DNA of 64,000 nucleotides from an uncultured bacterium. Lineage in GTDB: Bacteria; Planctomycetota; JAJSAM01; JAJVHW01. The notes beneath the pieces were generated by a model, which saw nothing but the letters and a program-made list of their open reading frames with translations, searched no databases and had not been told where the DNA came from. The DNA lies in assembly GCA_937996235.1 (NCBI GenBank), contig CALKVK010000032.1, positions 242,444 through 306,443 of the forward strand. The letters are read 5' to 3'. Below are positions 37,696-64,000 of the stretch, in pieces (position 1 is the stretch's first letter; each line of letters begins with the position of its first letter). The position numbers were made by a program, and so were the translations under genes.

Positions 37696-37781
37696 GGGTG
37701 GTTGCCCGAGCGGCCAATGGGACCAGACTGTAAATCTGGCGGCTTATGCCTGCGGTGGTTCGAATCCACCACCACCCACCA
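37696..37781 (+). tRNA. tRNA-Tyr (anticodon GUA), type II with long variable arm, CCA encoded
   Basis: Acceptor GGGTGGT/ACCACCC, anticodon arm CCAGA-CTGTAAA-TCTGG, long variable arm, T-arm GGTGG-TTCGAAT-CCACC. The 5' part is very similar to E. coli tRNA-Tyr. Confidence 0.85.
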
Positions 37782-38019
37782 TCGCGCGTAAAGCGTTGAG
37801 ATAGAGCCTGTTACGCAGGTGCGCCTGCTGCGATTGGCCTCGAGATCGGACCCGAAACAGTCTCCCTGTGCGTTGCACTGAGCGGAACGGCATAGCCTCA
37901 AGCGGAACGCCGTAAGCTGACAGATAAGCTGACAGCGTGCAGGCGGCCGGGGGCGATCTGGGGGCGGCTGTCCGCCTGCGACACTGACAAGCGACGTGCC
38001 ACGCGCGCGCTGGCCGCAG

Positions 38020-38105
38020 TCCTCGCTCGCGAGTCGGCGTGCCGCGGCCTCCGTTGCCCCGAACTCGTCGGTGTCGTGGCCTGCTGCGCGCAGCGCGGAG
38101 GGGCG
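38020..38105 (-). pseudogene. Remnant homologous to the 3' end/last repeat of the STAND-repeat gene at 46754..50545
   Basis: 38030-38099 (gcgagtcggcgtgccgcggcctccgttgccccgaactcgtcggtgtcgtggcctgctgcgcgcagcgcgg) aligns with 46748-46817 (gcgagtcagcgtgcctctgcctccagcgccgtgatctcgtcggcgtcgtgacctgctgcgcgcagcgcgg). Confidence 0.55.
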
Positions 38106-38253
38106 CAGACGGGCGAGAGCCTCTTCGCGACATTCGAGTACGAGCTGATCGATCGCTTCGCGCTCGATCGACGCGCCGCGGAGCCCAGGGGCTTCGACGC
38201 CATCGCGGGCTTCTGCAACACGTGTCCGCGAACACCCCAGACTCCCCCTTGGT
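38039..38253 (+). pseudogene. 5' part of an interrupted IS66-family transposase fragment
   Basis: The frame ending ...GLLQHVSANTPDSPL joins, across the IS21 insertion, to LTDHAENAIR... at 40535. This reconstitutes the IS66 motif (DDPRVPLDNNAAERAIR-like). Only the C-terminal ~110 aa of the transposase survive. Confidence 0.5.
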
Positions 38254-38344
38254 GGACACCTACTCTCCCGCACCTGCCTGACGCGGAGAGCGGGAGCCAG
38301 GATCATGTCCCCCGACCGGGCACGGTGTCCGGAGGAAGGGACAG

Positions 38345-39622
38345 GTGCCGATGGCTCGCCGACTCCGCCCGGAGGACGTGGTGACGATGGGAGTCTTGGC
38401 AGACCGAGGGCAGAGCGCGCGGTCGATCGCGCGGCAGTTGGACGTGGACGAGTCGATGGTGCGGTACCCGCTGAGGCGGCGTGCCGAGGGCGCTGCGGAC
38501 GCGCGCCGCGGGCGGCAGGTGCACCGGGCGTCGGTGCATGCGGAGCTGATCGCGCGCTCGTGGCAGGAGCATGAGAGCGGCGCGCGCCCCCCGATCGTCC
38601 ACGAGCTCCACGACCTCTTGGTCGAGGGGCACGGCTACGGCGGGAGCTACCAGTCGGTGCGGCGCTACGTGCGGGCGCAATTCCCGGCTCCGCGGCGGCG
38701 GGCGTACCGGCGCGTGGAGACGGTGCCGGGGGCGCAGGCGCAGAGCGACTGGGGCGAGTACCCGCGGATCCGCATCCGGCGCCGGGAGGTGCCGCGCAGC
38801 CTCTTCGTGATGGTGCTGAGCCACAGCCGCTGGACGGCGGGCGTGTGGTCGCCGCGGAAGGACCTGGTCGCGTGGCTGACGGTGCACAACGAGGCGTTTC
38901 GTCGTCTGGACGGCATCCCGGCGGTGAACCGGATCGACAACGTGAAGACGGCGATCGTGCGCGGGGCGGGGGCGTGGGGTGTGATCCACCCGACGTTTCG
39001 CACGTACGCGCGCACGGTGGGCTTCCACGTGGACGCGTGCGCGCCGCGGGCGGCGAACGCCAAGGGCAAGACCGAGGCGAAGGTGCGCCTGTCGCGGCTC
39101 TTCGGCGAGCTGCGCACGATGGACTTCGAGTGCGACGAGCACCTGCAGCAGGTGACCGACGCGCGTCTGCGGCGCTGGTCGGAGCGGGCGATCTGCCCGG
39201 CGACGGGGCGGAGCGTGGCGGCGAGCTGGGAGGAGGAGAAGCGGCTCCTGCGGCCCTTGCCGCTGCTGCCCGAGCCGTTTGACATCGCGGTCACGCGGCC
39301 GGTGCGCCGCGACTGCACGGTGGCGTTTGAGGGCCGCAGCTACACGGTGCCGTTTGCGCACGTGGGTCGCGAGGTGGAGGTGCGCGGCTGCGCGGGCACG
39401 GTGCAGGTCGTCGCCGGCGGCGTGGTCGTCGTGCAGTACCCGCGCGCGACGGCCGCGCGGATCTTGATCGACACCCGCTGCTGCGAGGGGCAGGCGACCG
39501 ACCGGGTGCTGCCTCCGCTGCCGCTCGGCAGGATGGGCCGGCGGCTCGAGGAGATCCGGCAGCTGCCCGTCGAGGAGCGTCCGCTGGACCTCTACGGCGC
39601 TCTGGCGGAGGTGGCGCGATGA
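38345..39622 (+). CDS. istA: IS21-family transposase IstA
   Basis: 425 aa. N-terminal HTH, DDE catalytic core, typical IstA length. GTG start with an ATG at 38351. Confidence 0.85.
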   Translation: MPMARRLRPEDVVTMGVLADRGQSARSIARQLDVDESMVRYPLRRRAEGAADARRGRQVHRASVHAELIARSWQEHESGARPPIVHELHDLLVEGHGYGGSYQSVRRYVRAQFPAPRRRAYRRVETVPGAQAQSDWGEYPRIRIRRREVPRSLFVMVLSHSRWTAGVWSPRKDLVAWLTVHNEAFRRLDGIPAVNRIDNVKTAIVRGAGAWGVIHPTFRTYARTVGFHVDACAPRAANAKGKTEAKVRLSRLFGELRTMDFECDEHLQQVTDARLRRWSERAICPATGRSVAASWEEEKRLLRPLPLLPEPFDIAVTRPVRRDCTVAFEGRSYTVPFAHVGREVEVRGCAGTVQVVAGGVVVVQYPRATAARILIDTRCCEGQATDRVLPPLPLGRMGRRLEEIRQLPVEERPLDLYGALAEVAR

Positions 39623-40392
39623 GCGCCGCGAAGAAGGGCCGCGTGGACCCGGACGCGACACGTGCGCAGCTCGAGCAGCTGGGGCTCGGCTACGCCTCGG
39701 AATCGCTCTCCTCGCTGCTGCAGGTGGCGGTGAAGGACGAGCTGCCTGCGCACGGCTTCCTCGACCGGCTGCTGGAGGCCGAGATCGGCCAGCGCGAGGA
39801 GCGGCGGGTGAAGACGTCCTTGGGTCTCTCGGGTCTTCCGACCGGGCAGACGCTGGCCGACTTCGACTGGAACTCCCAGCCCGGGATCCAGAAGAGCCAG
39901 GTGGAGACGCTCGCGACGTGCGAGTGGATCCGAGAGCACGCGACGATGCTGATCCAGGGCCCGCCGGGGGTTAGCAAGACGCACCTGGCCGTGGGTCTGG
40001 GCGCCAAGGCGGTCGAGAACGGCTTCAGCGTGCTCTTCGTGCGGCTCGACGACCTGCTGCACCAGCTCAAGCGCGACGCCGACGTGCCGCCGCAGCGGCT
40101 GCGCCGCAAGAAGTACATGAACGTCGCGCTCCTGATCGTCGACGAGGTCGGCTTCCAGCCGATGGACCGCCACGAGGCGAGCCTCTTCTTCCGGATGGTC
40201 AGACACCGCTACGGGCGTGGCTCGATGCTGATCACGACGAACAAGGCGGTGAAGGACTGGGCCGAGATCCTGGCGGGCGAGGAGGTGATGACCGCGGCGC
40301 TGCTCGACCGGCTGCCGCATCGCTGTCACGTCATGAACATCAAGGGCCGCAGCTACCGGCTGCGGGACCTGGAGAGGCTGCTCAAGCAGTGA
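39619..40392 (+). CDS. istB: IS21-family helper ATPase IstB
   Basis: 257 aa. Walker A GPPGVSKTHLA, Walker B LLIVDEVG. Its start overlaps the istA stop (ATGA). Confidence 0.9.
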   Translation: MSAAKKGRVDPDATRAQLEQLGLGYASESLSSLLQVAVKDELPAHGFLDRLLEAEIGQREERRVKTSLGLSGLPTGQTLADFDWNSQPGIQKSQVETLATCEWIREHATMLIQGPPGVSKTHLAVGLGAKAVENGFSVLFVRLDDLLHQLKRDADVPPQRLRRKKYMNVALLIVDEVGFQPMDRHEASLFFRMVRHRYGRGSMLITTNKAVKDWAEILAGEEVMTAALLDRLPHRCHVMNIKGRSYRLRDLERLLKQ

Positions 40393-40534
40393 GTGTGGCC
40401 GCCGAGAAGCGGCTCCGGTCGGCCCTCCGGGCCTCCCTCCACCGCTTCCCGGCGGCCTCGAGGAGTCGGAACGAAGTCGAAGGCCGCAGGTGCGGGGAAG
40501 TAGGTGTACGCCTAGTGCGGGAATCTAGGTGTCC

Positions 40535-40778
40535 CTTGACAGATCACGCCGAGAACGCGATTCGCGCGGCCGCACTCGGCCGCAGGGACCGGCGGTTCGC
40601 GGGCGGCGACGAGGGCGGACGCCGCGCGGCGCTCTTCTACTCGATCATCGCCAGCTGCACGGCCGCCGGCGTCGAACCCTTCGCCTACATCGAAGGCGTG
40701 CTGGCACGCATCCAGCGGACGCCGCAGTCGCAGGTCCGCGAACTCACGCCGCGCCGCTGGCTCGCCGCGCGCGGCTGA
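40535..40778 (+). pseudogene. 3' part of the interrupted IS66-family transposase (C-terminal fragment)
   Basis: LTDHAENAIRAAALGRRDRRFAGGDEGGRRAALFYSIIASCTAAGVEPFAYIEGVLARIQRTPQSQVRELTPRRWL matches the conserved IS66 TnpC C-terminus (NNxAEN..R..ALGRKNWLFAGS..GG..AA..YSLI.T.K.N.V.P..YL..VL..I...P......ELLP..W). Confidence 0.7.
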
Positions 40779-40982
40779 ACCCGGCGATCGGGATCACCTC
40801 AGAGCTCCCGTGGCTCGCGCTGCCCGCGCGGAGGTGTGCTCGGCCGGCCGGATACGGCTCTCACACCGGGTGGAACGAATCACGGTGGGCGGAGCACGAC
40901 GCACCAGTTCGGCGAGTCGCTCCGCTGTTGTGGGTGTCGGTTTCGGTACGAGATCCCGACGGGTTCGCGGGGCGTGCCGTCA

Positions 40983-43298
40983 CTACGACTCGCCACCCAG
41001 CGCGTCAAATCGCACGAAGAACTCCTTGGCGCCCGACGTCACCCGGAAGTTCTCGGTCAGCGCGTCGGGAACGGGAACGAAGATGCGCCGCCTCGTAATG
41101 AGCGTCGTCGTCGGGACCGGACCGCCGCCGGCTCCGCTACCCGCTATCGGCTCTCGAAGTTGGATGTCGTAGTACACGCTCAGCCGACCGGACGTGTCCG
41201 TGAAGATGTAGATGACCCGGTGACCGCCCCAGACGATGCGAGTCGTGTGCGGGATTCTGAAGAAGTCGGAGTACTCCTTCATCGCCCTGTCGGACAGGCC
41301 GAGTAGCATCGAGAAATTGTTCAATTGGGGATAGCTCGCCGCTGTCGTGAGCAGCTTCATGTCCGACGACAGGTCGTCGCGGACGATCGGTGGAGCCGGG
41401 CCGAACTCTCCGCCCGGAGGGGCCTCCTGCTTCACTGGGGACGCCACCACATCGGGGATGACGTTCTCGACCGTTCCTACCTGTCGGCTGGAGACGCTCT
41501 GGCTCTGTCTTCGGACGCTGGTCCGTGCCGCCAGCATGAGTTCCTTGAGCGGCACAGCGCCAGCCAAGTAGTCGCCCAGGACTCCCTCCAGGTCGCCGCG
41601 CTCGTCCGCCTCGTACCGGTAGAGCTCGCGATTCCGTTGGAGGATCTTACGGAGCGCATCGACGCCTTGCCGCGTCGAGGAAGGCACGTGTTGCTGCACC
41701 GATGGGTAGATGTGAACCCGAACAAAGTCCTTGACGACGGGATGAAACACATCATACGCGGTATCGTAGCACTCCAGCAGGGGGCGGATCTGCGGACCTC
41801 CGCGCGAAAGGTAGATGCGAAGCCCGTCCGAGGTCCTCTCGGGGAGCACGGAGACGCCGTGCGAGATGTCTGCCAGCGCGAACTCCGCCTCGGGGATCAG
41901 GTAGTCCTCCCGCAGAACGGACGTGGCGCGGATGAGCACAGCCACCTCCGGGATCGATAGATCCGCGCCGTCGTAGCGACGCACCACCCTCGCGGAGTCC
42001 GGCACCTGTTCAAGCTTGAGCTGTGTTCGCAGGTATTCCAACTGAACGGTTCTGCGGGGGTTCGATTGAGCTGGAAGCACGAGGCAGAGTTCCTCGTTCG
42101 CAAACGTATTCAGGATGGTCGTATCTAGACCCAAGTAGTAGTGCGCCTTCCGAGAACCGATGTGCGAGAGGAGTTCGCTCAGCGGGACGTCAGTGTCCTC
42201 GGGCAGCACGCGCACGGTGATCCGTCCGACCAGATCCGGTCGGCGGTTGGCGTGCAGCCATTGCACGAACGCGGTGTTGCGGTCTGCAAGCTTGTGCGTT
42301 GCCAAGACCTCCGAGGCGGCTCGTTCGGCCAACCGGATGAAGCGCGCGACTTGGTCGATGCTCTCGCGGCTGAGTGCCTCGCGCCCCGCTGTCGGCTGCA
42401 GGAACGAGAGGTTAGCGATGCCGCCGAATTGAAAGGGACCCGATGCCGGGACCGGGGCAAGGCCGAAATTCGACCGGAGACCGTTGACTTGTCCACCGGA
42501 TTGAAGCAGCACAATCTCGCCATCGACCGGCGCGCCGGCAAGTAAGAGGCTGCGACCGTAGACGAGCACCTGTCCGTTGGCATCCACACGGACTTCGAAA
42601 GATCCTGCGCAACTACCATCCGACTCGTCGCGTGTCCCCGCGTCCGCGAACGTGCGATGGCCGATCGGAAGCACCGCCTCTGCGGTGCGCTGACTGATGA
42701 GCACACCGTTCACGGTCACCGGGACGCGCAGCAGATTCACGAACGGTCCGAGGTAGCCAATCGCCTGCTCAGTGGTCAGCAGGTTCTCGGCGTCAAGCGT
42801 TGCAGTCACTGTCGTCCCGGTATCACGGGACCGCGGCAGCCGGTCTAGGACTATGCACCGCTCGCCGATCTTCAAGGTGGCCCGGTCCGCCGCGCTCCGC
42901 AGCATCTCCGCCGCGCCCTCGGTGCGGGTCTCCACCACGAGTCGCGTGCAGACTCCGAAGTTGGCCATCGCGCCGATCCCGAACGTACCGACGACCCCCG
43001 CCTGCCGGGCTGCCTCGGAGTGCTTGCCACTGGAGCCGGCCTTCCAGAAGTGCGTCGACAGCACGTCCTCGGTCATGCCGATGCCGTTGTCCGTGATGGA
43101 GACCGTCCCATCTCGAATCTCGATCTCGATGTGCCCGCCCTCGGCCAGAACGCCATCGCGAGCGAACCGCATCCGGACGGCGTCGTAGGCATTCTGGAGA
43201 TTCTCCCGGAGCATCGCCAGAGGGGAGTCGTAGATCTCACGGGCGAGCACCCTCAACACGCGGGTCGTATCGACCTCGAAGATGAGACCGTCGGTCAT
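40983..43298 (-). CDS. HSP90-like GHKL ATPase-domain protein (HATPase_c_3 / HtpG-like N-domain; the remaining ~550 aa have no obvious domain)
   Basis: 771 aa. The N-terminus EVDTTRVLRVLAREIYDSPLAMLRENLQNAYDA parallels the HtpG N-terminus (..LYSNKEIFLRELISNASDA). Bergerat-fold motifs ITDNGIGMT and GTFGIGAMANFG (HSP90 GxFGxGFYS). Lower GC (~58-60%) than the core. Its start overlaps the stop of the upstream phosphoesterase gene by 4 nt. Confidence 0.7.
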   Translation of the reverse strand: MTDGLIFEVDTTRVLRVLAREIYDSPLAMLRENLQNAYDAVRMRFARDGVLAEGGHIEIEIRDGTVSITDNGIGMTEDVLSTHFWKAGSSGKHSEAARQAGVVGTFGIGAMANFGVCTRLVVETRTEGAAEMLRSAADRATLKIGERCIVLDRLPRSRDTGTTVTATLDAENLLTTEQAIGYLGPFVNLLRVPVTVNGVLISQRTAEAVLPIGHRTFADAGTRDESDGSCAGSFEVRVDANGQVLVYGRSLLLAGAPVDGEIVLLQSGGQVNGLRSNFGLAPVPASGPFQFGGIANLSFLQPTAGREALSRESIDQVARFIRLAERAASEVLATHKLADRNTAFVQWLHANRRPDLVGRITVRVLPEDTDVPLSELLSHIGSRKAHYYLGLDTTILNTFANEELCLVLPAQSNPRRTVQLEYLRTQLKLEQVPDSARVVRRYDGADLSIPEVAVLIRATSVLREDYLIPEAEFALADISHGVSVLPERTSDGLRIYLSRGGPQIRPLLECYDTAYDVFHPVVKDFVRVHIYPSVQQHVPSSTRQGVDALRKILQRNRELYRYEADERGDLEGVLGDYLAGAVPLKELMLAARTSVRRQSQSVSSRQVGTVENVIPDVVASPVKQEAPPGGEFGPAPPIVRDDLSSDMKLLTTAASYPQLNNFSMLLGLSDRAMKEYSDFFRIPHTTRIVWGGHRVIYIFTDTSGRLSVYYDIQLREPIAGSGAGGGPVPTTTLITRRRIFVPVPDALTENFRVTSGAKEFFVRFDALGGES

Positions 43299-44749
43299 CG
43301 CAGGAACCTCTCTCGCACCCGCCGCATCACCTCCCGCACGCTCGCGTCGTTGCTATCGCGAACCTCTGGCGTGTTGAGAAACGACGTCGCGAACTCCCGA
43401 GCGCCACCTTGAAGTATCACGTCTGCAACCACGACAGCCTCGCCAGCATTCTTCGGCGGCCAGAGCTTGGAGAATATCGCTGGACTATCGCCTAGTTCGC
43501 CGAGGGCCTTGAAGAGAAGTGGTCGGGCGAGGGGGTGCTTGCTGATGGCGTCTAGGCATCGTACGGCGTCCTCCCACTGTCCTGCTCCAATCAGTGCCTC
43601 TGCGCGCTCCAGCGCGAGTGCTGCGTCGAGCCGCTCGGGTCGGTGAGCGAGGGGCTCGCAGACGGGGAACTCAACGTGATCGGTGCCAGTGGCCACGATG
43701 TAGCCCGGTCCCCAGAGGGGCATCGCGGGCGGGAGATTCAACATCTGCCGCAGGTGGACGGTTGCGGTCAGAGCGTCCGGATCGATGGTTACAATGTTGT
43801 AGCTGCGAGGCGTACCGGGAGCGAGGTGACGCACGCCAGAGCAGAGTGTGCCAGAACTGACGACGCTGATCTTGCGGCCGCTTGGGCCGAGTCGGAACCG
43901 CTCGTCCACGCATTCCTGGCGGTGTTGGTGGCCATGGAACGCCAGCGACACACCGGAGTCGATCAGGAGTTGGAGGACGCTGGCGTCCATGTAGTCGTTG
44001 CTCGCAGGCGGGCCGAAGAGATTGTGATGCCATGCTGCTGCGGTCATCCACCCCGTTCGATGGGGGCGCCGCAACTCGCGGGTTCCTTGGGCGAGGCAGT
44101 CTGGGTGGATGGCCCCCGCGCGCCTGAGAAGATCGTTCTCGTGGCAGCTGTTGAGAACGAGAATGCAGAAGCGGAGGTCGGGGAAGTCGAAAACGTGGTA
44201 CTGGAGTGATGGGTCAAGTGGATACATCCGCTGCCCCAAGTAGAACCGTTGGTAGAACTCCGCGAACGCCTCGAAGCGCCTCTCATATGCCGCTTCGTTG
44301 GTGACCCTGAGGAAGGACATCTCGGTCCACGACCAGCGGAGTGACGTGTGCGGATACTGGTACTCGGCCGCGAGCCGACGTTTCTCGGCCGCCGTAGCGG
44401 GTGCATCGACCCTCGACATGCTCGCGAACGCAACGGCCGCGTCGACATCGTGGTTCCCTGGGAGGAGTACGATGCGCTCGCGATCTCCCGCGAAGAACGT
44501 GTCTGCGAGCCTCGCGAGGAACTCCTCCGCCTGCCCATACTGTCGGGCGACTTCCTGTGCCGGAGTCGCGGCCGTTGGGTCGGCTCCGAAGATCAGGTCC
44601 CCCGTGACCAAGCACAGGGAGGGTGCAGGAACGCCTTGATTCACATACTTGTTGCGGTCGCGCTCGAGAGACTCGATGAGCCACGTGTTGGGAAGCTCAT
44701 CGTCGTGGTCCCTGTGGAGATCGGATAGGTGGAGGATCGAGAAACTCAT
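43295..44749 (-). CDS. Calcineurin-like metallophosphoesterase with a C-terminal helical extension
   Basis: 485 aa from ATG at 44749. MPE motifs ILHLSDLH (motif I), GDLIF (II), GNHD (III) and GHQH (V). The ~130-aa C-terminus has TPR-like helices. The track ORF begins upstream at 44836. Confidence 0.7.
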   Translation of the reverse strand: MSFSILHLSDLHRDHDDELPNTWLIESLERDRNKYVNQGVPAPSLCLVTGDLIFGADPTAATPAQEVARQYGQAEEFLARLADTFFAGDRERIVLLPGNHDVDAAVAFASMSRVDAPATAAEKRRLAAEYQYPHTSLRWSWTEMSFLRVTNEAAYERRFEAFAEFYQRFYLGQRMYPLDPSLQYHVFDFPDLRFCILVLNSCHENDLLRRAGAIHPDCLAQGTRELRRPHRTGWMTAAAWHHNLFGPPASNDYMDASVLQLLIDSGVSLAFHGHQHRQECVDERFRLGPSGRKISVVSSGTLCSGVRHLAPGTPRSYNIVTIDPDALTATVHLRQMLNLPPAMPLWGPGYIVATGTDHVEFPVCEPLAHRPERLDAALALERAEALIGAGQWEDAVRCLDAISKHPLARPLLFKALGELGDSPAIFSKLWPPKNAGEAVVVADVILQGGAREFATSFLNTPEVRDSNDASVREVMRRVRERFLR

Positions 44750-45261
44750 GGCCGTCCTGTGTCGCGTCGGGCAGCAAGAATACCCGCTTGGGCAGCCGAC
44801 GCGCATCGGGATCTGCGCTCGAATTTCACATCGCATCCGGCGCCCTGCGCCCTTCGCGTCCCGACTCCTGGGAAGTCGCCGCCGGGGTGGCTTGCGCCTG
44901 CGCGTGCATCACCTCCGCTGACGCGGGCCGAGCTCCGGCCACACGGTCTTCCGTTCGGTCCTCCGGACTCTTTGCCGTTGCGCGACGGGGAGACTGGGGC
45001 GGTCGCCGTCAGTCCACGCCGAGGTGATGCGCATGCCGTGTGCGCGAGACTGGGACCCGCTGCGGCTCATCGAGGTTCGACGCCAGTGGGCGCGGACGCG
45101 CTTCGACGTGCCCGGCAGGCGTCCGGCTCCTGCGTCCGGTGCGCGTCGTCTCCTGCGGCGGTTCAGGGGCGCGAGCCAGAAGGAGAAGCCCACGGAAGCT
45201 AGCAGTGGCCAGAACCGCACGGCCGTCGTGCCTGCGGGGACGGTCCACGCCTCGGTGTGCG

Positions 45262-45269
45262 CCAACGAG
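45262..45269. repeat. Left target-site duplication CCAACGAG of the IS1595 element
   Basis: An identical 8-mer is found at 46313..46320 immediately outside the right IR. Confidence 0.75.
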
Positions 45270-46312
45270 CATGCTTCTCCGGTTGACGACCGTAGCCCCC
45301 ATCGGTAGCGTTCCGGCCGCATGCCGAAGCCGGGCTACCCTCGCAACATCGTGGAGTTCACGCGCGACTTCGCCACCGACGAGCAGTGCCTGGCCTACCT
45401 CGTCCGGTGCCGGTGGCCCGACGGGTTCCGCTGCCGGCGGTGCGGCGGCGAGAGGGCGTGGCCCCGACCCGATCGCAAGGCAATGCGGTGCGCGGGCTGC
45501 GATCTGATCACCACCGTCACGGCAGGCACGGCGATGCACCGCAGCCGCCTGCCGCTCAAGTCGTGGCTCTGGGCCGCGTACATGTTGGCGACGGACAAGC
45601 GGGGGCTCTCGGCGCTCGCACTGCAGCGGCAGCTCGGTCTCGGCCGCTACGAGACCGCGTACCAGATGCTCCAGAAGCTGCGCTCGGCGATGGTCGCGCC
45701 GAATCGCACGCGGCTCGCGGGCGTCGTCGAGGTCGACGAGACGCTGATCGGCGCTCCCTTTCGAGGCCGAAAGGAGCGCACGGCGGCCGACAAGGCCGTC
45801 GTCGTGGGCGCGGTCGAGGTGCTCCCGACCAAGAAGGGCACGCAGCCCGGCCGCATCCGGCTGCGCCACGTGCCGACGGCGGCGAAGCCGCGTCTGATGG
45901 CGTTCGTCAAGGAGTGCGTCGAGCCCAAGGCCCTCGTGATCACCGACGGCCACGAGACCTACGACGAACTCGAGAAGCTCGGCTACGAGCACGGGATCGA
46001 ATCCACCGCGACGGGCGAAGCGCAGGAGAACGTCCTGAGGCACCTGCACCTGGTCTTCTCCAACCTCAAGACGTGGCTCGACGGCACGCACCACGGCCGA
46101 GTCTCGAAGAAGCACCTGCAGCAGTACCTCGACGAGTTCACGTTTCGCTTCAACCGGCGGCACACGCCGCAGGCCGCGTTCCAGACGATCCTCGGCATCG
46201 CCGCGAAGACGCCGCCGCGCACGTACGAGCAGGTGTACGCAGGCGAGCCTGCCGAGCCGCTGCCCTTCTAGCACAAGGGGTTGGGGGTGCGGTCGTCAAC
46301 CGGAGAAGCATG
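45270..46312 (+). mobile_element. IS1595-family (ISXO2-like) insertion sequence, intact
   Basis: Perfect 24-bp terminal inverted repeats (left catgcttctccggttgacgaccg; right cggtcgtcaaccggagaagcatg), an 8-bp TSD typical of IS1595, and a single transposase gene. Total 1043 bp. Confidence 0.85.
45321..46271 (+). CDS. IS1595-family transposase (N-terminal zinc ribbon + DDE_Tnp_IS1595)
   Basis: 316 aa. CRRCGGERAW...CAGC zinc ribbon. The DDE domain with the C-terminal HxxxxxH/FRFNRR motif is characteristic of ISXO2-like transposases. Confidence 0.85.
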   Translation: MPKPGYPRNIVEFTRDFATDEQCLAYLVRCRWPDGFRCRRCGGERAWPRPDRKAMRCAGCDLITTVTAGTAMHRSRLPLKSWLWAAYMLATDKRGLSALALQRQLGLGRYETAYQMLQKLRSAMVAPNRTRLAGVVEVDETLIGAPFRGRKERTAADKAVVVGAVEVLPTKKGTQPGRIRLRHVPTAAKPRLMAFVKECVEPKALVITDGHETYDELEKLGYEHGIESTATGEAQENVLRHLHLVFSNLKTWLDGTHHGRVSKKHLQQYLDEFTFRFNRRHTPQAAFQTILGIAAKTPPRTYEQVYAGEPAEPLPF

Positions 46313-56438: not shown

Positions 56439-58510
56439 CCCAGCACCTCGTCCAACATCCCGCGGATCTCGTCCTCCAGCGCCCGAATCTCCTTCTCGAT
56501 CTCGGCCAGCGGCCGGGGCGGTGTGTACTCGTAGAAGTGCCGCGTGAACGGGATCTCGTAGCCGATCTTCGTCTTGGTCTCGTCCACCCAGGCATCGGGG
56601 ACGTGCGGCAGGACCTCGCGCTCCATGTAGGCAGCGATGTCCTCGCCGAGCGGGACGTTCTCGTTGTCGCCGAGGTCGGGATCGGGCTCGACGGCACCCT
56701 TCGCGTCGCGGCAGACCTCAGCCGCCTCGTCGCGCTCGCCTAGTGCCGTGAGGATCGCCTTCTGGATGGGGGCGGAGAGCCTCAGGTCGAGACCCTTCGC
56801 CGCGGCGTTCAGGTCCTTCAGGAACGCCTTGCGGCTCGTGTAGACCCGCTCGGCGTCAAAGCAGGCCAGCACATCGCGGATGGCCGCCTGCGCCTGCCGA
56901 CCCCCCTCGATCTCGGAGTGCCGCGCTCCAGCGTCCTTCTTGGTGCTCTTGACGAGGCCCTGCCACGTGCGGTCGTCCTCGAGCCGTGCGATCCGCTCGC
57001 TGCTCGCCTGGAAGTTGAGGCGGAGGGGGCGCTCGACGGTGATCCGACGGAACCCGAAGTCGTCGTTCGCGAAGACCTTCACCTCCGTGCCGGGAACGCC
57101 GTCGGCGTAGAGGCGGACGAGCGCGGCGATGTCGTCCTCCCCGAGTTCCTTGCGCTTGTCGCCGAGCGACTTCCGCATCTTCCGGAAGTACTTCACGCCG
57201 TTGACGAGCAGCACCTTCCCGCGGCGCTCCGGCGTCTTGCGGTTTGTGACCACCCAGACGTACGTGTTGATGCCGGTGTTGTAGAAGAGCTGGTCGGGCA
57301 TCGCGACGATGGCCTCGAGCAGGTCGTTCTCGAGCAGGTAGCGGCGGATCTCGCTCTCGCCCGAGCCGGCGGCGCCGGTGAAGAGAGGGGAGCCGTTGAA
57401 GACGATCGCGAGGCGCGAGCCCCCCTCCTCGGGCGGCTTCATCTTGCTCATCATGTGGAGCAGGAAGAGCAGGGAGCCGTCGTTCTTCCGGGGTAGGCCC
57501 GGGCCGAACCTGCCGGAGAAGCCGCGCTTCTCGTGCTCGTCGCGGACGACCTTCTCGGCCTTCGTCCAGTCCACGCCGAAGGGCGGGTTCGAGATCAGGT
57601 AGTCGGTGTGGAGGGCGGCGTGGCCGTCCTCGCTGAAGGAGTTCCCGCGCTTGATCGCGTCGGCGTCCTGCCCCTTGATCAGCATGTCGGCCTTGCAAAT
57701 GGCGTAGGACTCGGGGTTCAGCTCCTGCCCGAAGACCTGCAGCCGGGCATCGGGGTTCAGCTCGGCCAGGTACTCCTCGGCGACCGAGAGCATGCCGCCC
57801 GTCCCGCAGGCCGGGTCGTAGATGGTCCGGACCGTGCCGGGGCGGCGCAGGGCGTCCGCGTCGCCGACCATGAGCAGGTTGACCATGAGCCGGATGACCT
57901 CGCGCGGCGTGAAGTGCTCGCCGGCGGTCTCGTTGCTCTGCTCCGCGAACTTCCGGATGAGCTCTTCGAAGATCGACCCCATGTGGTGGTTGTCCACCCG
58001 GCCGGGGTGGAGGTCGATCCCGGCGTACTTCTGCAGGACCAGGTAGAGGAGGTCCGCCTTGTCGAGGCGCTCGATCTGCGCCTCGAAGCGGAAGTTCTCG
58101 ACGATGTCCTGGGCGTTCCGGCTGAAGCCGTGGATGTACGCGGTCAGGTTCTGGGCGACGTGGCCCGGAGCGGCGAGGAGCCGCTCGAAGTCGAGCTTCG
58201 AGGTGTTGTAGAAGCTCTGCCCGGCCGCCTTGAGGAGCATCCGCTCCTTCACGGCCTCCGGCGAGCCTTTGTACTTCTCGGCCGCCGCCCAGACCGCCGC
58301 GCGCGTCGGGGCGAGCACCTGGTCGAGGCGGCGCAGGACCGTGAGCGGCAGGATGACCGAGCCGTACTCGTGGGCCTTGTAGTCCCCCCGCAGGAGGTCG
58401 GCCACCGACCAGATGAAGCTGACCTTGTCGCCGAAGCCGTTGGTGCCCGCCACGTCCCTCACCTCCCGCGCCGCAGCGTGACCGCGGCTCCCGTCACGAG
58501 GCAGGATCAT
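56435..58510 (-). CDS. hsdM: Type I restriction-modification DNA methyltransferase HsdM (N6-adenine)
   Basis: HsdM_N motif (IWSVADLLRGDYKAHEYGSVILPLTVLRRLD), AdoMet motif I (DPACGTGGML), catalytic NPPF. ATG at 58510; the track ORF extends to 58633. Confidence 0.9.
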   Translation of the reverse strand: MILPRDGSRGHAAAREVRDVAGTNGFGDKVSFIWSVADLLRGDYKAHEYGSVILPLTVLRRLDQVLAPTRAAVWAAAEKYKGSPEAVKERMLLKAAGQSFYNTSKLDFERLLAAPGHVAQNLTAYIHGFSRNAQDIVENFRFEAQIERLDKADLLYLVLQKYAGIDLHPGRVDNHHMGSIFEELIRKFAEQSNETAGEHFTPREVIRLMVNLLMVGDADALRRPGTVRTIYDPACGTGGMLSVAEEYLAELNPDARLQVFGQELNPESYAICKADMLIKGQDADAIKRGNSFSEDGHAALHTDYLISNPPFGVDWTKAEKVVRDEHEKRGFSGRFGPGLPRKNDGSLLFLLHMMSKMKPPEEGGSRLAIVFNGSPLFTGAAGSGESEIRRYLLENDLLEAIVAMPDQLFYNTGINTYVWVVTNRKTPERRGKVLLVNGVKYFRKMRKSLGDKRKELGEDDIAALVRLYADGVPGTEVKVFANDDFGFRRITVERPLRLNFQASSERIARLEDDRTWQGLVKSTKKDAGARHSEIEGGRQAQAAIRDVLACFDAERVYTSRKAFLKDLNAAAKGLDLRLSAPIQKAILTALGERDEAAEVCRDAKGAVEPDPDLGDNENVPLGEDIAAYMEREVLPHVPDAWVDETKTKIGYEIPFTRHFYEYTPPRPLAEIEKEIRALEDEIRGMLDEVLG

Positions 58511-58833
58511 GGCACGGCGAGGGGCGGGACGGCGACCACGAAGCGCGCCCGTCGGATCCGCCAGTCGTCGGGTGGCGCAGCCCGCCCGAGCCGCGGATGG
58601 CGGCGACGCGCGATCCACGCACACAGCCAGCAACGCGCCCTTCAGCGCCGGCTGTGTGGGGCCGTCGATGCGGCCCGATGTTCGGCGCCGCTCGCCGGCT
58701 CCGAGGTGCTACCTCGCCAGGCCACCCACAAGGTCCGATACGCCGTGCCTCGATGTGCTCGCCGCTCCGAACGCTGCGCTCCCCCGAACTCCGGTACCCA
58801 GGAGGCAGGGCCGTCAGATAGCCTCGAGCGGCG

Positions 58834-59409
58834 TTGCCCGAGGACGAAGCGATGCGACTCCTGCGCGTGCTCGATCTCAAGAAGCTTGATCTCAGCAGGA
58901 TCGCCGAGCTCCCGTGGAGCTGGATCGTGCTGACCGCGATCGGCGTAGCGATCATCGGCTCGCTTGCTCAGTTCGTGGTGGACACGCGACGCAAGCTCCG
59001 GCTTCGAGCGGCGCACGAACAGCTCGACCTCATGCTCGACGCGCGGGGAGAGTTCGATCCCGGCGCGCGGCGCGCGGCGCACGCGAGCTTGGACCACAGG
59101 ACGCAAGCCGCACGAGAACTCGAGCTCGCGAGGCAGCGCGCTCGCGACTCTGGACCGATGCCGGAGCGCGACTTCTTCAAGGGCTCTCCAACGTCCGCCG
59201 TCCTCGCCGTCGGCGTCTGTCTTCCCGTGGGCGTCATCGCTGCTGCGTTCCGCTACACGCTGGGCGTCGCTCTCCTCGGCGTGGGAGCGTCCGAGAACGT
59301 TGCGTGGGGCATCGGAGGCGCGGTCGGTGTCGGCGTCGTGCTGCGCTGGCTCTTCATGGCCGAGCCGCCGCTCTTCGACCTTCGGGAGTCCATCCGACGC
59401 CGGCTGTGA
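58834..59409 (+). CDS. Hypothetical membrane protein (2-3 TM helices)
   Basis: 191 aa. TM helices SWIVLTAIGVAIIGSLAQFVV and VLAVGVCLPVGVIAAAF...GIGGAVGVGVVL. No recognisable catalytic motif. Confidence 0.4.
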   Translation: MPEDEAMRLLRVLDLKKLDLSRIAELPWSWIVLTAIGVAIIGSLAQFVVDTRRKLRLRAAHEQLDLMLDARGEFDPGARRAAHASLDHRTQAARELELARQRARDSGPMPERDFFKGSPTSAVLAVGVCLPVGVIAAAFRYTLGVALLGVGASENVAWGIGGAVGVGVVLRWLFMAEPPLFDLRESIRRRL

Positions 59410-59606
59410 TGGGACATGCAGCATCGCTGCAGCATGCGTTCCGCAGCGTACTTGGCGCGCGCCGTACCGACCCTGTGGGCGGTGATGGATCTGCGAGCGT
59501 CCGCGCTGGATGCCTCCTCCCAACGCGACCGCGGCTGCCGGTGGACTCGTCCGGCAACCAGCGGGCGGCTGCTGGCGATGCGCGGCCTGACACTCCGAGG
59601 TGACGG

Positions 59607-60515
59607 ATGACGCGAAACGCGGACGCTCCCGACTCTCCGGCACACGTCAGGATCGCCGCGATCGCTGCGATCGAGGATCTCGCAGCTCGCATGCAAAGCG
59701 ACTGCCACCGCGTCGCGCGAACGGAGCCCGGTCCCGCTGGCGTGACGCACGCGGAACTCGCTTCCCTGAGACACGGCGAGACCGTTGAGTACCGCTCGCA
59801 GTGCCGCGAGCCCGGAGAACGGGCATGGAGCGCGATCCACGCTGCGGTGTGTGGGACGTCCCACCTGGCAGAGCTCGTGTCGCGACTGGACGCGGTCGCC
59901 GAGACCGACGTGATGGAGTTGGCCCGGTTGCAGTCGGGCCGGCCCCTCGACGTGCCGTTCGGTCTCGAGTACGTCGTCCTAGTCGCGCTTGCCGCACTGC
60001 GGCGATCAGACCGAGATCAAGCGCGCCGAATGCTCCGCTCCATCCCACAGGGGCACTTCGAGCTCCCGCACGAAGGCCTGTTTCATGCGTCCCTCACCAT
60101 CCCGTCGCAGCCTATATACTGCGAGGACCGACCAGGGCTCTTCCAACTGGTGGCGATGGCGCTTGTCGCGGATGCGTTCCGTGAGCGCACGGCGGCGCAG
60201 GAGTTGGCGCGACTAGCGGTGCAGCGCCTGGCCGTCGCGGCCGCAACAACTCCGGCGTGGCTTACCGAGTACGTGGAGGCGCGACTCGAGGAGCAGCGAC
60301 CGAGTGGCGAGTTCGTGCGCGGCGTACCCGCTGCGGTGAATTGGATGGATACGCAGTTCGGGCGCGCGCCATCTGAGTCGACACTCCGACGCGAACTCCA
60401 GGTCGTGGTTGGAACGCGCACGGCGACGCAACGGAACACGACTCTGAAGATCCTGATCCGAGATCTGCACGTCATCGCGCGGAGGCTCGGCTACCAGGCG
60501 CGAGCGGCGCCGTGA
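59607..60515 (+). CDS. Hypothetical protein, no recognisable domain
   Basis: 302 aa ORF, co-directional with the preceding membrane protein. Composition is consistent with coding. Function unknown. Confidence 0.4.
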   Translation: MTRNADAPDSPAHVRIAAIAAIEDLAARMQSDCHRVARTEPGPAGVTHAELASLRHGETVEYRSQCREPGERAWSAIHAAVCGTSHLAELVSRLDAVAETDVMELARLQSGRPLDVPFGLEYVVLVALAALRRSDRDQARRMLRSIPQGHFELPHEGLFHASLTIPSQPIYCEDRPGLFQLVAMALVADAFRERTAAQELARLAVQRLAVAAATTPAWLTEYVEARLEEQRPSGEFVRGVPAAVNWMDTQFGRAPSESTLRRELQVVVGTRTATQRNTTLKILIRDLHVIARRLGYQARAAP

Positions 60516-60680
60516 CGGCGACCCTCGACGGCGTCCCGCAGCGCGGATCCGCCACGCGCGAGGGCGGAGCAGGATCGCGATTCGCCAAGATCCACCAAAG
60601 CGCCAGAGTCGCCTGAAGCGCAGTTCCCAGCCGTCACGGTGTGCGCCACGATGCGGCCCTCTTCAACACAGGGGGTTCCC

Positions 60681-60896
60681 ATGAGCCGCATCGAGCTTCT
60701 TTCCTCGCAAGACGTCGCCGACGAACTCGACGTCAGCGCGAGCACGGTCCGTCGCGCCGCAGCCGCGCTCGGAGTCGGCCGCACCGTCGCCGGGCGGCTG
60801 GTCTTCGACCCGGACGACGTGGCGGCGATCGCTGACGAGATCGAGGGCGATGACGACGGTCACGACGGCGACGACGCCGGCGACGAACTCGACTAG
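60681..60896 (+). CDS. AlpA/Xis-like HTH DNA-binding protein (excisionase/transcriptional regulator of mobile elements) with acidic tail
   Basis: MSRIELLSSQDVADELDVSASTVRRAAAALGVG is HTH_17/AlpA-like. GGGGGT RBS upstream. The track ORF begins at 60639. Confidence 0.6.
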   Translation: MSRIELLSSQDVADELDVSASTVRRAAAALGVGRTVAGRLVFDPDDVAAIADEIEGDDDGHDGDDAGDELD

Positions 60897-60953
60897 CCGA
60901 GGTCGCGGTGGCGCGCGCGGCCTGGACGCCGCGCGCGCTGCTGCGGACGCGCG

Positions 60954-63176
60954 ATGGAACCGCACGCCCACAACTCAAGTGTACACGCCGCGGCGACGCC
61001 ACGCGGCGCTGCGCCGCCCACCCCTCAGCCGAAGTATCCGGGGCCACGCGGCGTGGGCAGCCTCACCGCGGAGATCGTCGCCAACGGGCGCTCCCGTGAT
61101 GCGCTCGAGGAACTCCTCGGGCGGGAGCTGAAGCAGCCCGGAGAGAACACCGTCAGGTGTTGGCAACCGTCGCGTCACGCACACGGAGACCGAAGCCCGA
61201 GTGCGTCGGCCAACGTTGCGAAGGGCGTGCTCCACTGCCACAAGTGCCACGATACGACGGACATCGCGACGTTGATCATCGCGAACGGCCACGCCCGCGA
61301 CTTCCCCGGGGCGCGCGCCTTCGCGCTGCAGCGTGGGTGGCTGCCTAGTCGACCGAGCGGCGCCGCCCTTCTTCCTGCGCCGCACCACGGTGGAGCGAGC
61401 ATCGTCACGGGCGGCACGTCGGAGTTCCCCTACTACCCCGAGGCCGCGAAGCGCCTCGGTTGGGAGTGGAAGACGGACAAGAACGGTACGCGCTGCCTCT
61501 CGGTGCCCACCGTTCTGCCAGACGGCACGCCCGGCCGGCGCAAGCTCCGCGGCCCGCGCATCGAGGGGAAGGTGACAGCCTGGTTCGACGGCGAGCACGC
61601 CACGGGAATCGGTCTGATCGTCAACAGAGAGTTCACCGACGGCCAGAGCAGGGAGCACCGGCGCATCTACGTCGTCGCCGGAGAGACCGACCTCCTCGCG
61701 CTCGAACACTACGCATGCGCCTGGGGCCTCTCTGTGGCGATCGCATCGGGCGCGAAGGGCGAACGGTCCAGCCTCGAGGGCCTGGTCGAGTTGTTCCGCG
61801 GGGCTGAGGTCGTCGTCATCTACGACGCCGATGTCGATGGCCGAGCGGGCGCCGCAACGCTGCTCGCCGAACTGCGGGCCGCCGGCATCGTTGCCGCGTC
61901 ACTGGCACTGGAGTTCGCGGAGGACGAGATAGAGGACGGGAGGAAGGACCTCCGCGACTGGCTCGAGCTTCACTCGGGCGACGTGCGCAAGCTGGTGGCG
62001 CTGGCGGACGCTGCCACGGAGAGAGCCGCGCCGGGTCCGCGCGCCATCTCGGCCGAGGACCTGCTCGACGCCATTGACGCCGGGCGCTTCCCGCTGCCCG
62101 AGCCGCTCTTCACTCCGTACATCCTGCGCGGCGAGATCGTCGGGCTCGGAGGTCCGCCCGGCGCCGGCAAGAGCTTCCTTGCGCTCCGGATGGCCATCGT
62201 CGCTGCGCTCGGCCTTGGCGACGTGTTGATCAACTCCGACGACGATCGCCTCGCGTTCGCGCCGTCGAAGCCCCTGAGGGTGCTGTACATCGACGCCGAG
62301 GTCGGCCACGCCCTGTTCGGGAAGCGCCTACGGAACATCCTCGCGGACATCGGTGTGCAGCGCGGCGCTCTCGAGTCGCGGCTCCACACGCAGTTCCTCC
62401 TCGTCCACGCCTTCGACCTCGTCGAGCTCGGGCACCGCGAGTACGTGCTCGGCGAGATCGAACGGCTCGGACCGGACGTCGTCGTCTGGGACTCTGTCTC
62501 GTCGCTGTTGCCGACGCTGGACCACTCCTCTGGTCCCGCGGTAAGGGCAAGTGTCCGCGATCTCTTCTACGAGGCGCGGAAGCGCGTCGGTGGAGAGCTG
62601 ACGCAGCTTCTTCTCTTCCACGCCACGAAACGGGGCGACGCGCGCTCGCCGAAGTCCGCACAAGATCGCTTCTTCGGCACGCTGATCGGCTGGATGGCGT
62701 GCCTCGACGGTGCGCTGTTGCTCGACACGGGCATCGACCAGAGCGACGGCCGCGTCCACCTCCACCACGCGAAGGCGCGCAACTGCGCGATCCAGACCAC
62801 GGTAACCATGAGGGGGCCGGACGAGTACGGCCGGTTCGAGGTTCTCGATGAGCACGAGCGCGTCTCGAAGCGTCCAGTCAGGCAGGCGACGAGCGCGAGC
62901 GCGGTGACGGCGACGAAGGCGCACGAGGCGATCACGGCTGCGCTGGAGCATCGCAGTAGCGAGTGGGTCACGCTGGCCGAGGTTGTGCACGAGAGCAGCG
63001 TGTCCAGATCCTCGTGGGACCGCGCGCTCAGGGACGGCCTGCTCAGTGAACTGTCGGACCTCTTCGAGTCCGACACGCACGGAGCCCGCGGAGCGCGGCG
63101 GTTCCGGCTCAAGGCGGCACCCGCGCTTCACCAGCGTCAGCAACGTCATGACGCACGTCAGACGAGGCACAAGTGA
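60954..63176 (+). CDS. Primase-helicase fusion: CHC2 zinc-finger/Toprim primase N-terminus + RepA-like AAA_25 ATPase
   Basis: CHC2 finger (CWQPSRHAHGD...HCHKCHD). Toprim (YVVAGETDLLALEH...VVIYDADVDGRAG). Walker A GLGGPPGAGKSFLAL and Walker B VVVWDSVS. The true start is probably downstream of 60954 because the N-terminus is low-complexity. Confidence 0.7.
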   Translation: MEPHAHNSSVHAAATPRGAAPPTPQPKYPGPRGVGSLTAEIVANGRSRDALEELLGRELKQPGENTVRCWQPSRHAHGDRSPSASANVAKGVLHCHKCHDTTDIATLIIANGHARDFPGARAFALQRGWLPSRPSGAALLPAPHHGGASIVTGGTSEFPYYPEAAKRLGWEWKTDKNGTRCLSVPTVLPDGTPGRRKLRGPRIEGKVTAWFDGEHATGIGLIVNREFTDGQSREHRRIYVVAGETDLLALEHYACAWGLSVAIASGAKGERSSLEGLVELFRGAEVVVIYDADVDGRAGAATLLAELRAAGIVAASLALEFAEDEIEDGRKDLRDWLELHSGDVRKLVALADAATERAAPGPRAISAEDLLDAIDAGRFPLPEPLFTPYILRGEIVGLGGPPGAGKSFLALRMAIVAALGLGDVLINSDDDRLAFAPSKPLRVLYIDAEVGHALFGKRLRNILADIGVQRGALESRLHTQFLLVHAFDLVELGHREYVLGEIERLGPDVVVWDSVSSLLPTLDHSSGPAVRASVRDLFYEARKRVGGELTQLLLFHATKRGDARSPKSAQDRFFGTLIGWMACLDGALLLDTGIDQSDGRVHLHHAKARNCAIQTTVTMRGPDEYGRFEVLDEHERVSKRPVRQATSASAVTATKAHEAITAALEHRSSEWVTLAEVVHESSVSRSSWDRALRDGLLSELSDLFESDTHGARGARRFRLKAAPALHQRQQRHDARQTRHK

Positions 63177-63390
63177 TGGCGAGGCAGGTGCTTACGGCTG
63201 CAGTGTCAGCCGCGTCAGCGAGCGGTCGTGACGACGCTGCCGTAACTCCCTCTCTGGGCAACAGCTTGAGTTCCATCACCATCACTACCCCTACGGGGGA
63301 ACAGCGGTGACGCAGCTGTCCCCCTCGGGTAGCTCGCGCCGAACCGAGACGGACGCCGCGACGAGGCGTCGCCGGCAGGGGGCGCGGCCA

Positions 63391-64000
63391 TGACGCCGGG
63401 CCGGGTCCAGCTCGATGCGGAGATCATCGACCGGCTGCGCGCGCGCGGGTGGGGTGCCCGGCGCATCGCGAAGTACGTCGGCACCTCGCGCTCCACGATC
63501 CGGCGGTACCTCATCGGTCGGCGGACTCCGGAGGGGATTCCCAGCACCTCGACGGCGCCTCTTGGCCCGGTAGGTGGGCCACGTCCCCCGGCGGTGGCCC
63601 GGACCGGTCGGGAGCAGGCGAGGTTGGGCGCGGACCCCCGCGCCCGGCATGCGCAGAGCCTGACCAGGGCCTTCCAGGCCGGTCCGCCGGACCGGGATCG
63701 TCACGCGGCCGAATGCATGCGGTCCGCGTTCCTGGATGGCCGCCCCCACGCCACGGCGTGGGTCGCCGTCGACGACGCGCTCCGACAGCTCCGACGGGAG
63801 CGAGAGGACCGCCGTCGCGCGGCGGAGGTCGCCGCCTTCGACCTCCGCCGCCACTGGCGGGACGAGGTTGCGCTGCTCTCGGTACGCGCGGCGCAGCTGA
63901 GCGTTCGCGGCCGTGCGGATCTCCGGCGGGCGGCAGACGGGGAGGAGCGGCGCCTCGCCGAACTCCTCGCCCGCCGGCTGGCGGATGGGACCAGCTACGT
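63391..64000 (+). CDS. Hypothetical HTH-domain protein (3'-truncated by the window edge)
   Basis: ATG at 63391. Resolvase/transposase-type HTH (RARGWGARRIAKYVGTSRSTIRRYL). The ORF runs off the window; the antisense ORF 63291..63854 is judged spurious. Confidence 0.35.

Follow-up and report, generated by a model that had tools for sequence, protein, structure and literature searches.

The closest described counterparts of the region analysed here are the tRNA-associated islands, which include P4-like and CP4-57-type elements as well as pathogenicity and symbiosis islands. In elements that target a tRNA gene, the integrase gene normally adjoins that tRNA gene, as reportedly found in a survey (Williams 2002). 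Two other concepts bear on the region, the defence island (Makarova et al. 2011) and the defence hot spot (Oliveira et al. 2017; Hochhauser et al. 2023). Here we describe the DNA that follows the tRNA-Tyr gene in a stretch of 64,000 nt of contig CALKVK010000032.1 (the whole of this stretch is referred to below as the window). The region starts at position 37782 and runs beyond position 64000, and its right end lies outside the 64-kb window. We show that this DNA was acquired horizontally, that it is mosaic, and that it is rich in defence and mobile-element genes. The 26 kb or more that follow tRNA-Tyr constitute a genomic island of an ordinary, already known kind.

Like the tRNA-associated islands, the region consists of atypical, foreign DNA that begins where a tRNA gene has its 3' end and is absent in relatives, and it contains a gene for an excisionase/AlpA-like helix-turn-helix (HTH) protein, a primase-helicase gene, insertion sequence (IS) elements and accessory cargo. 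It differs from these islands in that the 26 kb available contain neither an integrase gene nor a flanking direct repeat, and in that the tRNA-proximal end, the usual place of the integrase, holds IS debris. The likeness to defence islands and hot spots lies in the clustering of defence or candidate defence modules with mobile-element genes and in the combination of conserved flanks with variable content. In line with the former, the region has a complete type I restriction-modification (R-M) operon, a PDC-S11 gene, two candidate modules based on architecture and three IS elements. However, only the R-M operon is of a validated defence kind; a STAND-like protein and a metallophosphoesterase/Hsp90-like pair are assigned by their architecture and neighbourhood. 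The island itself is a routine annotation result, and its value lies mainly in its cargo.

Foreign DNA downstream of tRNA-Tyr

Our conclusion is based on the foreign composition of the region, its gene content, a break in synteny and the anatomy of its IS elements. Genes were selected by their GC content at third codon positions (GC3), because a genome of about 73% GC fills raw lists of open reading frames (ORFs) with spurious frames, and their products were then compared with the Pfam, PADLOC, PHROGs and NCBIfam libraries. GC3 provides a clear composition signal that is more informative than the overall GC content. In 19 core genes it amounts to 0.948±0.021, and ten genes of the island, together with a remnant of an IS66 transposase gene, lie 4-10 standard deviations below this mean. 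The shift in codon usage is clear, since most island genes have values of 0.75-0.86 against about 0.95 in the core: 0.75 for the metallophosphoesterase gene, 0.77 for both hsdS and orf302, 0.79 for the GHKL ATPase gene, 0.82 for orf191, 0.83 for the HTH gene, 0.84 for the DUF4268 gene, 0.85 for the primase-helicase gene and 0.86 for the STAND-like gene. An IS21 element, an IS1595 element, hsdR and hsdM, on the other hand, have host-like values (0.93-0.96), and the codon usage of the two IS elements is unlike that of their surroundings. Because low-GC3 genes sit beside these host-like ones, the region is truly mosaic.

The overall GC content is 73.0% before tRNA-Tyr and 68.6% after it. Values of 62-64% in 1-kb windows are reached only in the block at 41-45 kb, where the lowest 500 nt have 60.4%; the second-lowest block, at 54-57 kb, has 65.5-67%. 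An earlier note on this DNA, made from the sequence alone, had described a drop from about 72% to about 58-64% in several blocks; the drop is real, but its size and the number of blocks were overstated. The collapse of coding density that was described in the same note is contradicted by our data: about 86% of the segment 37782-64000 is coding, and gene scars are confined to 37782-38344 and 40516-40982.

The break in synteny became evident from a comparison with four relatives (L003, L004, L011 and L012), whose chorismate synthase (AroC) is 68-73% identical to that encoded in the window; they probably belong to the Planctomycetota, and one of them comes from a bin labelled as such. A metagenome scan with an AroC alignment gave only distant AroC genes (47-59% identical), which were useless for an empty-site test. 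The core genes upstream of the tRNA genes in the window encode SMC, a class-I glutamine amidotransferase (GATase), PrkA, DUF444, SpoVR and AroC, and the four relatives share 74-85% of their nucleotides with the window over the aligned prkA, DUF444, spoVR and aroC genes and both tRNA genes. These are tRNA-Thr(TGT) (37548-37621, plus strand; found by ARAGORN, 71 bits on the Rfam tRNA model), the first gene of a conserved tRNA cluster, and tRNA-Tyr(GTA) (37696-37781, plus strand; ARAGORN and Rfam). The blastn alignments to all four relatives end at 37781-37784, which makes tRNA-Tyr the left boundary of the variable DNA. Downstream of it, tblastx revealed no sequence common to the window and these relatives. 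The genes of the island are therefore absent at this locus in all four, and the same genes are not present there in all lineages compared.

The corresponding interval differs in every relative. In L012, tRNA-Tyr is separated from tRNA-Gly(TCC) by 1.5 kb (11400-12937) that contain two DedA genes, and tRNA-Gly(TCC) is followed by tRNA-Thr(GGT), tuf, rpmG, tRNA-Trp, secE, nusG, rplKAJL and rpoB. The distance is 7.6 kb in L011 (5431-12993) and 8.6 kb in L003 (9525-18170); the parts adjacent to tRNA-Tyr are unlike each other in these two, which have in common only tRNA-Gly-proximal genes, including those for DinB and MscS. In a fifth relative, the same position is taken by yet another gene set, a series of unannotated genes on the minus strand. 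In the window at least 26.2 kb with IS, defence and mobile-element genes follow tRNA-Tyr, and the right end is not reached. The last ORF, which leaves the window, still has a GC3 of 0.85, indicating that the atypical DNA continues beyond 64000; an exact 43-mer from the end of the window had no match in metagenome contigs. The earlier note was right that the DNA is foreign, mosaic and rich in defence and mobile-element genes, that the variable part begins just 3' of tRNA-Tyr, and that it runs past the end of the window. The gap in the cluster AroC, tRNA-Thr, tRNA-Tyr, [gap], tRNA-Gly, tRNA-Thr, tuf, secE, nusG, rpl is a lineage-wide variable locus. With this gap upstream of tuf marked as variable in this lineage, and at least about 26 kb of a high-GC, probably planctomycete metagenome-assembled genome marked as accessory DNA, the locus is useful for quality control of binning and for the mining of defence genes in a poorly studied phylum.

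The three IS families named in the earlier note (IS21, an IS66 remnant and IS1595) are all supported by Pfam or NCBIfam matches. The IS21-family element (38248-40515, plus strand) is intact and contains istA (38345-39622) and istB (39619-40392); IstA scores 181.8 bits on the NCBIfam model transpos_IS21 (cut-off 160), and IstB matches Pfam at 1e-68. Its 30-nt inverted repeats (38248-38277 and 40486-40515) are 83% complementary, and its GC3 is host-like (0.94). No target-site duplication is present in its flanks, which are unrelated to each other: on the left lies a fragment of a repeat-protein gene followed by unassigned sequence, and on the right the C-terminal remnant of an IS66-family transposase gene (40516-40778, plus strand; DDE_Tnp_IS66_C, 36.6 bits with a cut-off of 30; E 5e-9 and 7e-8 in two Pfam scans), which is cut by IS21. 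The lack of a target duplication between unrelated flanks points to IS-mediated deletion or rearrangement. The IS1595-family element (45269-46313, plus strand; tnp at 45321-46271; 190 bits with a cut-off of 75; GC3 0.93) is intact and a simple insertion, with 31-nt inverted repeats at 45269/46313 that are 94% complementary and a 6-bp target duplication, CAACGA, at 45263-45268 and 46314-46319.

Probable stepwise accretion and its alternatives

In our view the island is probably a composite that arose by stepwise accretion, followed by erosion by IS elements, in a lineage-wide variable spot, and not one intact element. First, one or more integrative elements would have entered next to the tRNA gene. 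The recognisable relic of such an element would be the module at 58.8-64 kb, which consists of two orphan ORFs, the excisionase-like HTH gene, the primase-helicase gene and a further HTH ORF. Second, defence cargo of differing origins would have settled between this module and the tRNA gene: the type I R-M operon with its compositionally divergent hsdS and DUF4268 genes, the rare STAND-like NTPase with a putative repeat-array sensor, and the widely travelling metallophosphoesterase/Hsp90-like pair. Third, IS elements resident in the host would have remodelled the island, IS1595 by a clean insertion and IS21 at the rearranged tRNA-proximal end, and IS-mediated deletion or rearrangement could have removed an integrase gene that was once located beside the tRNA gene.

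The state of the tRNA-proximal end fits with this scheme. The first 234 nt after tRNA-Tyr (37782-38015) are non-coding and contain no Pfam domain in any of the six frames. Within them, 100-155 nt past the end of tRNA-Tyr, lie two pairs of short tandem direct repeats that are largely restricted to this place: the copies of AGCGGAACGSCRTA start at 37881 and 37901, with a spacing of 20 nt, and those of TAAGCTGACAG, a motif absent from the rest of the 64 kb, start at 37913 and 37925, with a spacing of 12 nt. Speculatively, the repeats at 37881-37935 may be leftover arm sites of a recombinase or excisionase, or binding sites of other proteins. The next 90 nt (38016-38105, minus strand) correspond to the 3' end of a repeat-protein gene that is a paralogue of the STAND-like gene: they are 81-83% identical to 46736-46825, where the STAND-like gene, at a distance of 8.7 kb, has its stop codon, and 89% identical to one of its internal repeats (47750-47802). 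These identities mark the segment as what is left of another repeat-protein gene, which was once convergent to tRNA-Tyr. The left flank of IS21 (38106-38247) resembled by eye the C-terminus of an IS3-type transposase, an assignment that was supported neither by six-frame Pfam searches nor by tblastn against plasmids. The tRNA-proximal end is thus a repeatedly rearranged graveyard of unrelated fragments, and its repeated rearrangement would be the simplest route by which an integrase gene could have been lost.

Several observations count against stepwise accretion at the tRNA gene. No ORF in the window has a recombinase domain above noise in Pfam; a faint Resolvase match (E 0.0078) lies over the Toprim domain of the primase-helicase, and we do not take it for a recombinase. 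Of the seven gaps between genes, six did not reveal a recombinase domain in six-frame translations either; for the seventh (58630-60640), the reading covered the frames of its two ORFs only. No attR-type repeat of the tRNA-Tyr 3' end (GGTTCGAATCCACCACCACCCACCA) was found in the window (last 25 nt, at most 3 mismatches; blastn-short), and the same applies to L003 and L004. These domain and repeat searches agree with the remark in the earlier note that no integrase or attR is visible. Moreover, the size of the island, its unity and its target site all depend on a right end that lies beyond 64000. The codon usage of hsdR and hsdM is host-like, and hence some of the DNA may be native or of old standing. 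None of the relatives is close, the highest AroC identity being 73%, and their intergenic DNA is not alignable; as a consequence of this divergence the breakpoint is placed only within 37782-38015, an interval of about 230 nt. Finally, the interval in the relatives is occupied by genes of a housekeeping type (DedA, DinB, MscS, globin, MiaE) and no integrase gene, and thus the locus may simply vary without tRNA-targeted integration. Because the window has neither an integrase domain nor a repeat of the tRNA 3' end, we infer, rather than observe, that the island entered by site-specific recombination at the tRNA gene. Accordingly, of the earlier claim that integration took place at the 3' end of tRNA-Tyr, the boundary abutting the tRNA gene stands, and entry there as one element is conjectural.

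How do other explanations compare with a composite origin? On the one hand, as the earlier note had read it, the region might be one integrative element that is still largely intact (an integrative mobilisable or satellite-like element, or a genomic island) and that recombined into the 3' end of tRNA-Tyr, with its integrase gene and attR beyond 64000. That the boundary abuts tRNA-Tyr, that the excisionase-like gene and the primase-helicase gene point rightwards to the unseen end, and that atypical composition persists to base 64000 would all be expected of such an element, and the tandem direct repeats at 100-155 nt from the tRNA end could be its arm-type sites. However, the position by the tRNA gene that an integrase gene would normally occupy holds unrelated fragments and IS21 here, the three IS families and the compositional classes, of which there are at least four, argue for several separate events, and there is no attR within 26 kb. 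We therefore consider a single element unlikely.

On the other hand, the locus might be a hot spot of gene flux that is independent of the tRNA gene, at which foreign genes would be exchanged by transposition and by homologous recombination in the conserved flanks (AroC and the tRNA genes to the left, tRNA-Gly and tuf to the right), the primase-helicase gene being mere cargo. The content of the locus differs in every relative and holds ordinary genes there, no integrase is encoded in the parts seen, att repeats are lacking in the window, L003 and L004, and the cassette-like replacement of hsdS and the DUF4268 gene in the R-M operon indicates active recombination, all of which would agree with such a hot spot. 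Yet the variable part is at tRNA-Tyr, and the DinB-MscS genes near tRNA-Gly are kept in L003 and L011, a polarity that fits insertion from the side of tRNA-Tyr, and an excisionase-like gene is present. A hot spot without a role for the tRNA gene thus appears distinctly improbable. The idea that the DNA is native and vertically inherited, with a GC content lowered by gene function or relaxed selection, can draw on the host-like GC3 of hsdR, hsdM and the IS elements, but is effectively refuted by ten genes and the IS66 remnant lying 4-10 standard deviations below the core in GC3, by the lack of homologues at the locus in four relatives, by a content of IS elements, defence genes and a replication gene of mobile elements, and by the 59-70% identity of the metallophosphoesterase/Hsp90-like pair to proteins of unrelated phyla.

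A metallophosphoesterase and an Hsp90-like ATPase encoded as a pair

The only part of the island with real discovery potential is a two-gene module that is listed in no defence catalogue. Its first gene encodes a calcineurin-like metallophosphoesterase (MPE; 43295-44755, minus strand; Pfam Metallophos, 2.7e-10), and its second gene a paralogue of the GHKL (Hsp90-family) ATPases (40983-43298, minus strand; 771 aa; Pfam HATPase_c_3). The MPE ORF extends to 44836, and its homologues begin near 44755. The two genes overlap by 4 nt, and this overlap and the Pfam domains confirm that they form a pair, as had been noted from the sequence. An AlphaFold (AF2) model of the GHKL protein, made from 45 homologues (pLDDT 78), matches full-length TRAP1/HtpG/Hsp90 with an E value of 2e-21 over some 620-680 columns, and PDB 8gae is among its fold matches. 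Its ATP-binding residues N36, D70 and G74 are invariant in a family alignment. In the MPE, all calcineurin-type catalytic motifs are invariant in five homologues, and the C-terminal tail consists of helical repeats.

The pair, in which the MPE has about 485 aa and the Hsp90-fold ATPase about 772 aa, is spread over unrelated phyla; members of the GHKL family are 56-70% identical across Methylophilaceae, Nitrotoga, Polyangiaceae, Binataceae and Clostridiaceae. It is conserved in the loci L005-L010 and L093 (at 8550-12322 in L005, 8544-12319 in L006, 8544-12331 in L008 and 5535-9304 in L093), and its two genes either overlap or directly adjoin each other in all loci seen. Four independent settings were found, mostly in defence-rich or mobile neighbourhoods. 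In L005 the pair lies beside genes for an OLD/TOPRIM protein, a type I R-M system, a TIR protein and an nSTAND3 protein. In L006 it is located 5.5 kb from a tyrosine integrase gene, with umuDC directly downstream and genes for RelE and AIPR further along. In L008 it lies beside transposase genes, and on conjugative Pseudomonas megaplasmids beside an ABC-three-component system. We considered whether the pair and a type I R-M system travel as one block; the type I R-M proteins of L005 are only 27-37% identical to those of the window, and hence the two do not travel together. Likewise, a conserved third gene upstream of the pair was rejected, as the small gene at that position differs between loci and IS1595 split no such gene in the window.

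The RefSeq annotation of the genes is generic only, neither PADLOC 2.0 nor NCBIfam 20.0 has a model for the pair, and full-text literature searches returned no description of it. The closest described defence system is DS-9, identified with DefensePredictor, in which the metallophosphatase DS-9A is combined with a HAD phosphatase (PMC13092281). The MPE of the window resembles DS-9A in its calcineurin-like catalytic domain and matches the NCBIfam model DS9_1_antiphage (NF053862) with an E value of 2.4e-18. Its score of 66.2 bits, however, is far under the cut-off of 420, and it carries a C-terminal helical-repeat domain instead. Moreover, its partner is an Hsp90-fold GHKL ATPase and not a HAD phosphatase, which sets the pair apart from DS-9, Metis and PUA-calcineurin-HAD alike. 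Judged by these comparisons, the MPE is a distant relative of the validated DS-9A, and the pair is not a member of the DS-9 family.

The pair also bears a resemblance to a eukaryotic one. In eukaryotes, Hsp90 is paired with PP5, a phosphatase that carries tetratricopeptide (TPR) repeats, and the window likewise combines an Hsp90-fold ATPase with an enzyme of the metallophosphoesterase fold that has helical, TPR-like repeats. The ATPase of the window is only 13-15% identical to Hsp90, though, and the repeats are C-terminal in the MPE and N-terminal in PP5. In addition, the genomic context of the pair suggests a role in conflict rather than in chaperoning. Based on its conservation across phyla (59-70% identity for the ATPase), its defence and mobile contexts, its kinship with DS-9A and the lack of an existing model, we tentatively suggest that the pair might form a hitherto uncharacterised anti-phage system of two genes that has been transferred widely, in which the Hsp90-like ATPase would act as sensor or switch and the MPE as effector, in a manner loosely like that of Hsp90 and PP5.

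Other cargo and the module at 58.8-64 kb

The type I R-M system that had been recognised in the earlier note was confirmed, as hsdR, hsdS and hsdM are present together, and it has an additional, embedded DUF4268/PDC-S11 gene. All four genes are on the minus strand: hsdR (51197-54169; Pfam HSDR_N, SWI2_SNF2, ResIII and T1R_D3; PADLOC REase_I, 1e-40; GC3 0.96), the DUF4268/PDC-S11 gene (54166-55104; Pfam DUF4268, 4e-23; PADLOC PDC-S11, 6e-113; GC3 0.84), hsdS (55092-56438; PADLOC Specificity_I, 4e-98; GC3 0.77) and hsdM (56435-58633; PADLOC MTase_I, 1e-286, aligned from residue 68). As judged from its gene content, the operon is complete. The first 50 codons of hsdM have a GC3 of 0.70 and the remainder of the gene 0.90-0.98; probably, the TTG start codon is annotated 50-70 codons too early and the true start is near 58430-58480. 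Along the operon GC3 is about 0.96 in hsdM, 0.70-0.90 in hsdS, 0.74-0.92 in the DUF4268 gene and 0.88-1.0 in hsdR, with steps at the hsdM/hsdS and DUF4268/hsdR borders. Such sharp steps at gene borders suggest that the specificity cassette was replaced, and the apparently swapped cassette makes the operon a cargo of interest.

A further item of main value among the cargo is the gene for a STAND-like P-loop NTPase (46754-50545, minus strand), a rare protein of 1263 aa whose repeats are nearly identical to each other. Its N-terminus is hydrophobic, a Walker A motif lies near residue 375, and the C-terminal part is an array of about 13 predicted helical repeats of 41 aa, encoded by 46784-48342. 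Tandem Repeats Finder (TRF) counted 12.7 copies of a 123-nt unit with 86% matches; the repeats vary little, and the differences between them do not cluster at obvious hypervariable positions. The array, which is distinct from the N-terminal 300 aa, is a putative sensor domain, and the N-terminal region a putative effector or adaptor. The family is rare: of 1.84 billion proteins, 20 belong to it at E<=1e-30. When the window protein was aligned with 19 relatives, AAA_16 was matched by nine of the 20 sequences, ATPase_2 by five, and nSTAND_NTPase5 and nSTAND3 by one each; the window protein itself has only sub-threshold matches, to AAA_30, ATPase_2 and RFC. The former designation as a STAND NTPase was put too firmly, as the matches to AAA_16, ATPase_2 and nSTAND models are spread over the aligned family and no match of the window protein reaches a curated threshold.

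The module at 58.8-64 kb is encoded on the plus strand. It begins with two ORFs for which no match was found in Pfam, PADLOC, PHROGs or NCBIfam: orf191 (58834-59409; 191 aa, GC3 0.82), which encodes a predicted membrane protein, and orf302 (59607-60515; 302 aa, GC3 0.77). They are followed by the gene for the small excisionase/AlpA-like HTH protein (60639-60896; 85 aa, GC3 0.83). The AlpA/Xis-like assignment that it had been given was put too firmly; it draws on a match to phrog_66, "excisionase and transcriptional regulator", at 2e-6 and on an HTH_17 match of 19.6 bits, under the cut-off of 27. The primase-helicase gene (60954-63176) encodes a protein of 740 aa with a zinc finger, a Toprim domain and a RecA-like AAA_25 domain. 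Its earlier identification is corroborated by the matches to Pfam AAA_25 (5e-15) and phrog_239, DNA primase/helicase (2.6e-14); the match to Toprim_4 is weak. A search by shared 5-mers among 5.8 billion proteins found no close homologue other than the protein itself, a search of plasmids found none, and a search of genome contigs gave a single irrelevant match, in Oscillospiraceae. The best outside match is a 26% identity to primase/helicases of Arthrobacter phages.

Described types of mobile elements were compared with this module. A prophage was rejected, as PHROGs gave no structural or packaging matches, and so was an integrative and conjugative element (ICE), as general Pfam scans of the ORFs in the window gave no relaxase or type IV secretion domains. 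The likeness to P4-like satellites and phage-inducible chromosomal islands (PICIs) is limited to the presence of an HTH protein and a primase-helicase, the primase being of a different type: that of the window combines Toprim and RecA-like domains and is not of the P4 alpha type. The window also contains no integrase and no match to a family of phage morphogenesis proteins. The last gene of the module is an ORF with an N-terminal HTH (63390-64000, plus strand; GC3 0.85) that leaves the window; its weak matches to HTH_38, HTH_23 and HTH_7 agree with the further HTH gene that had been noted near the end of the window.

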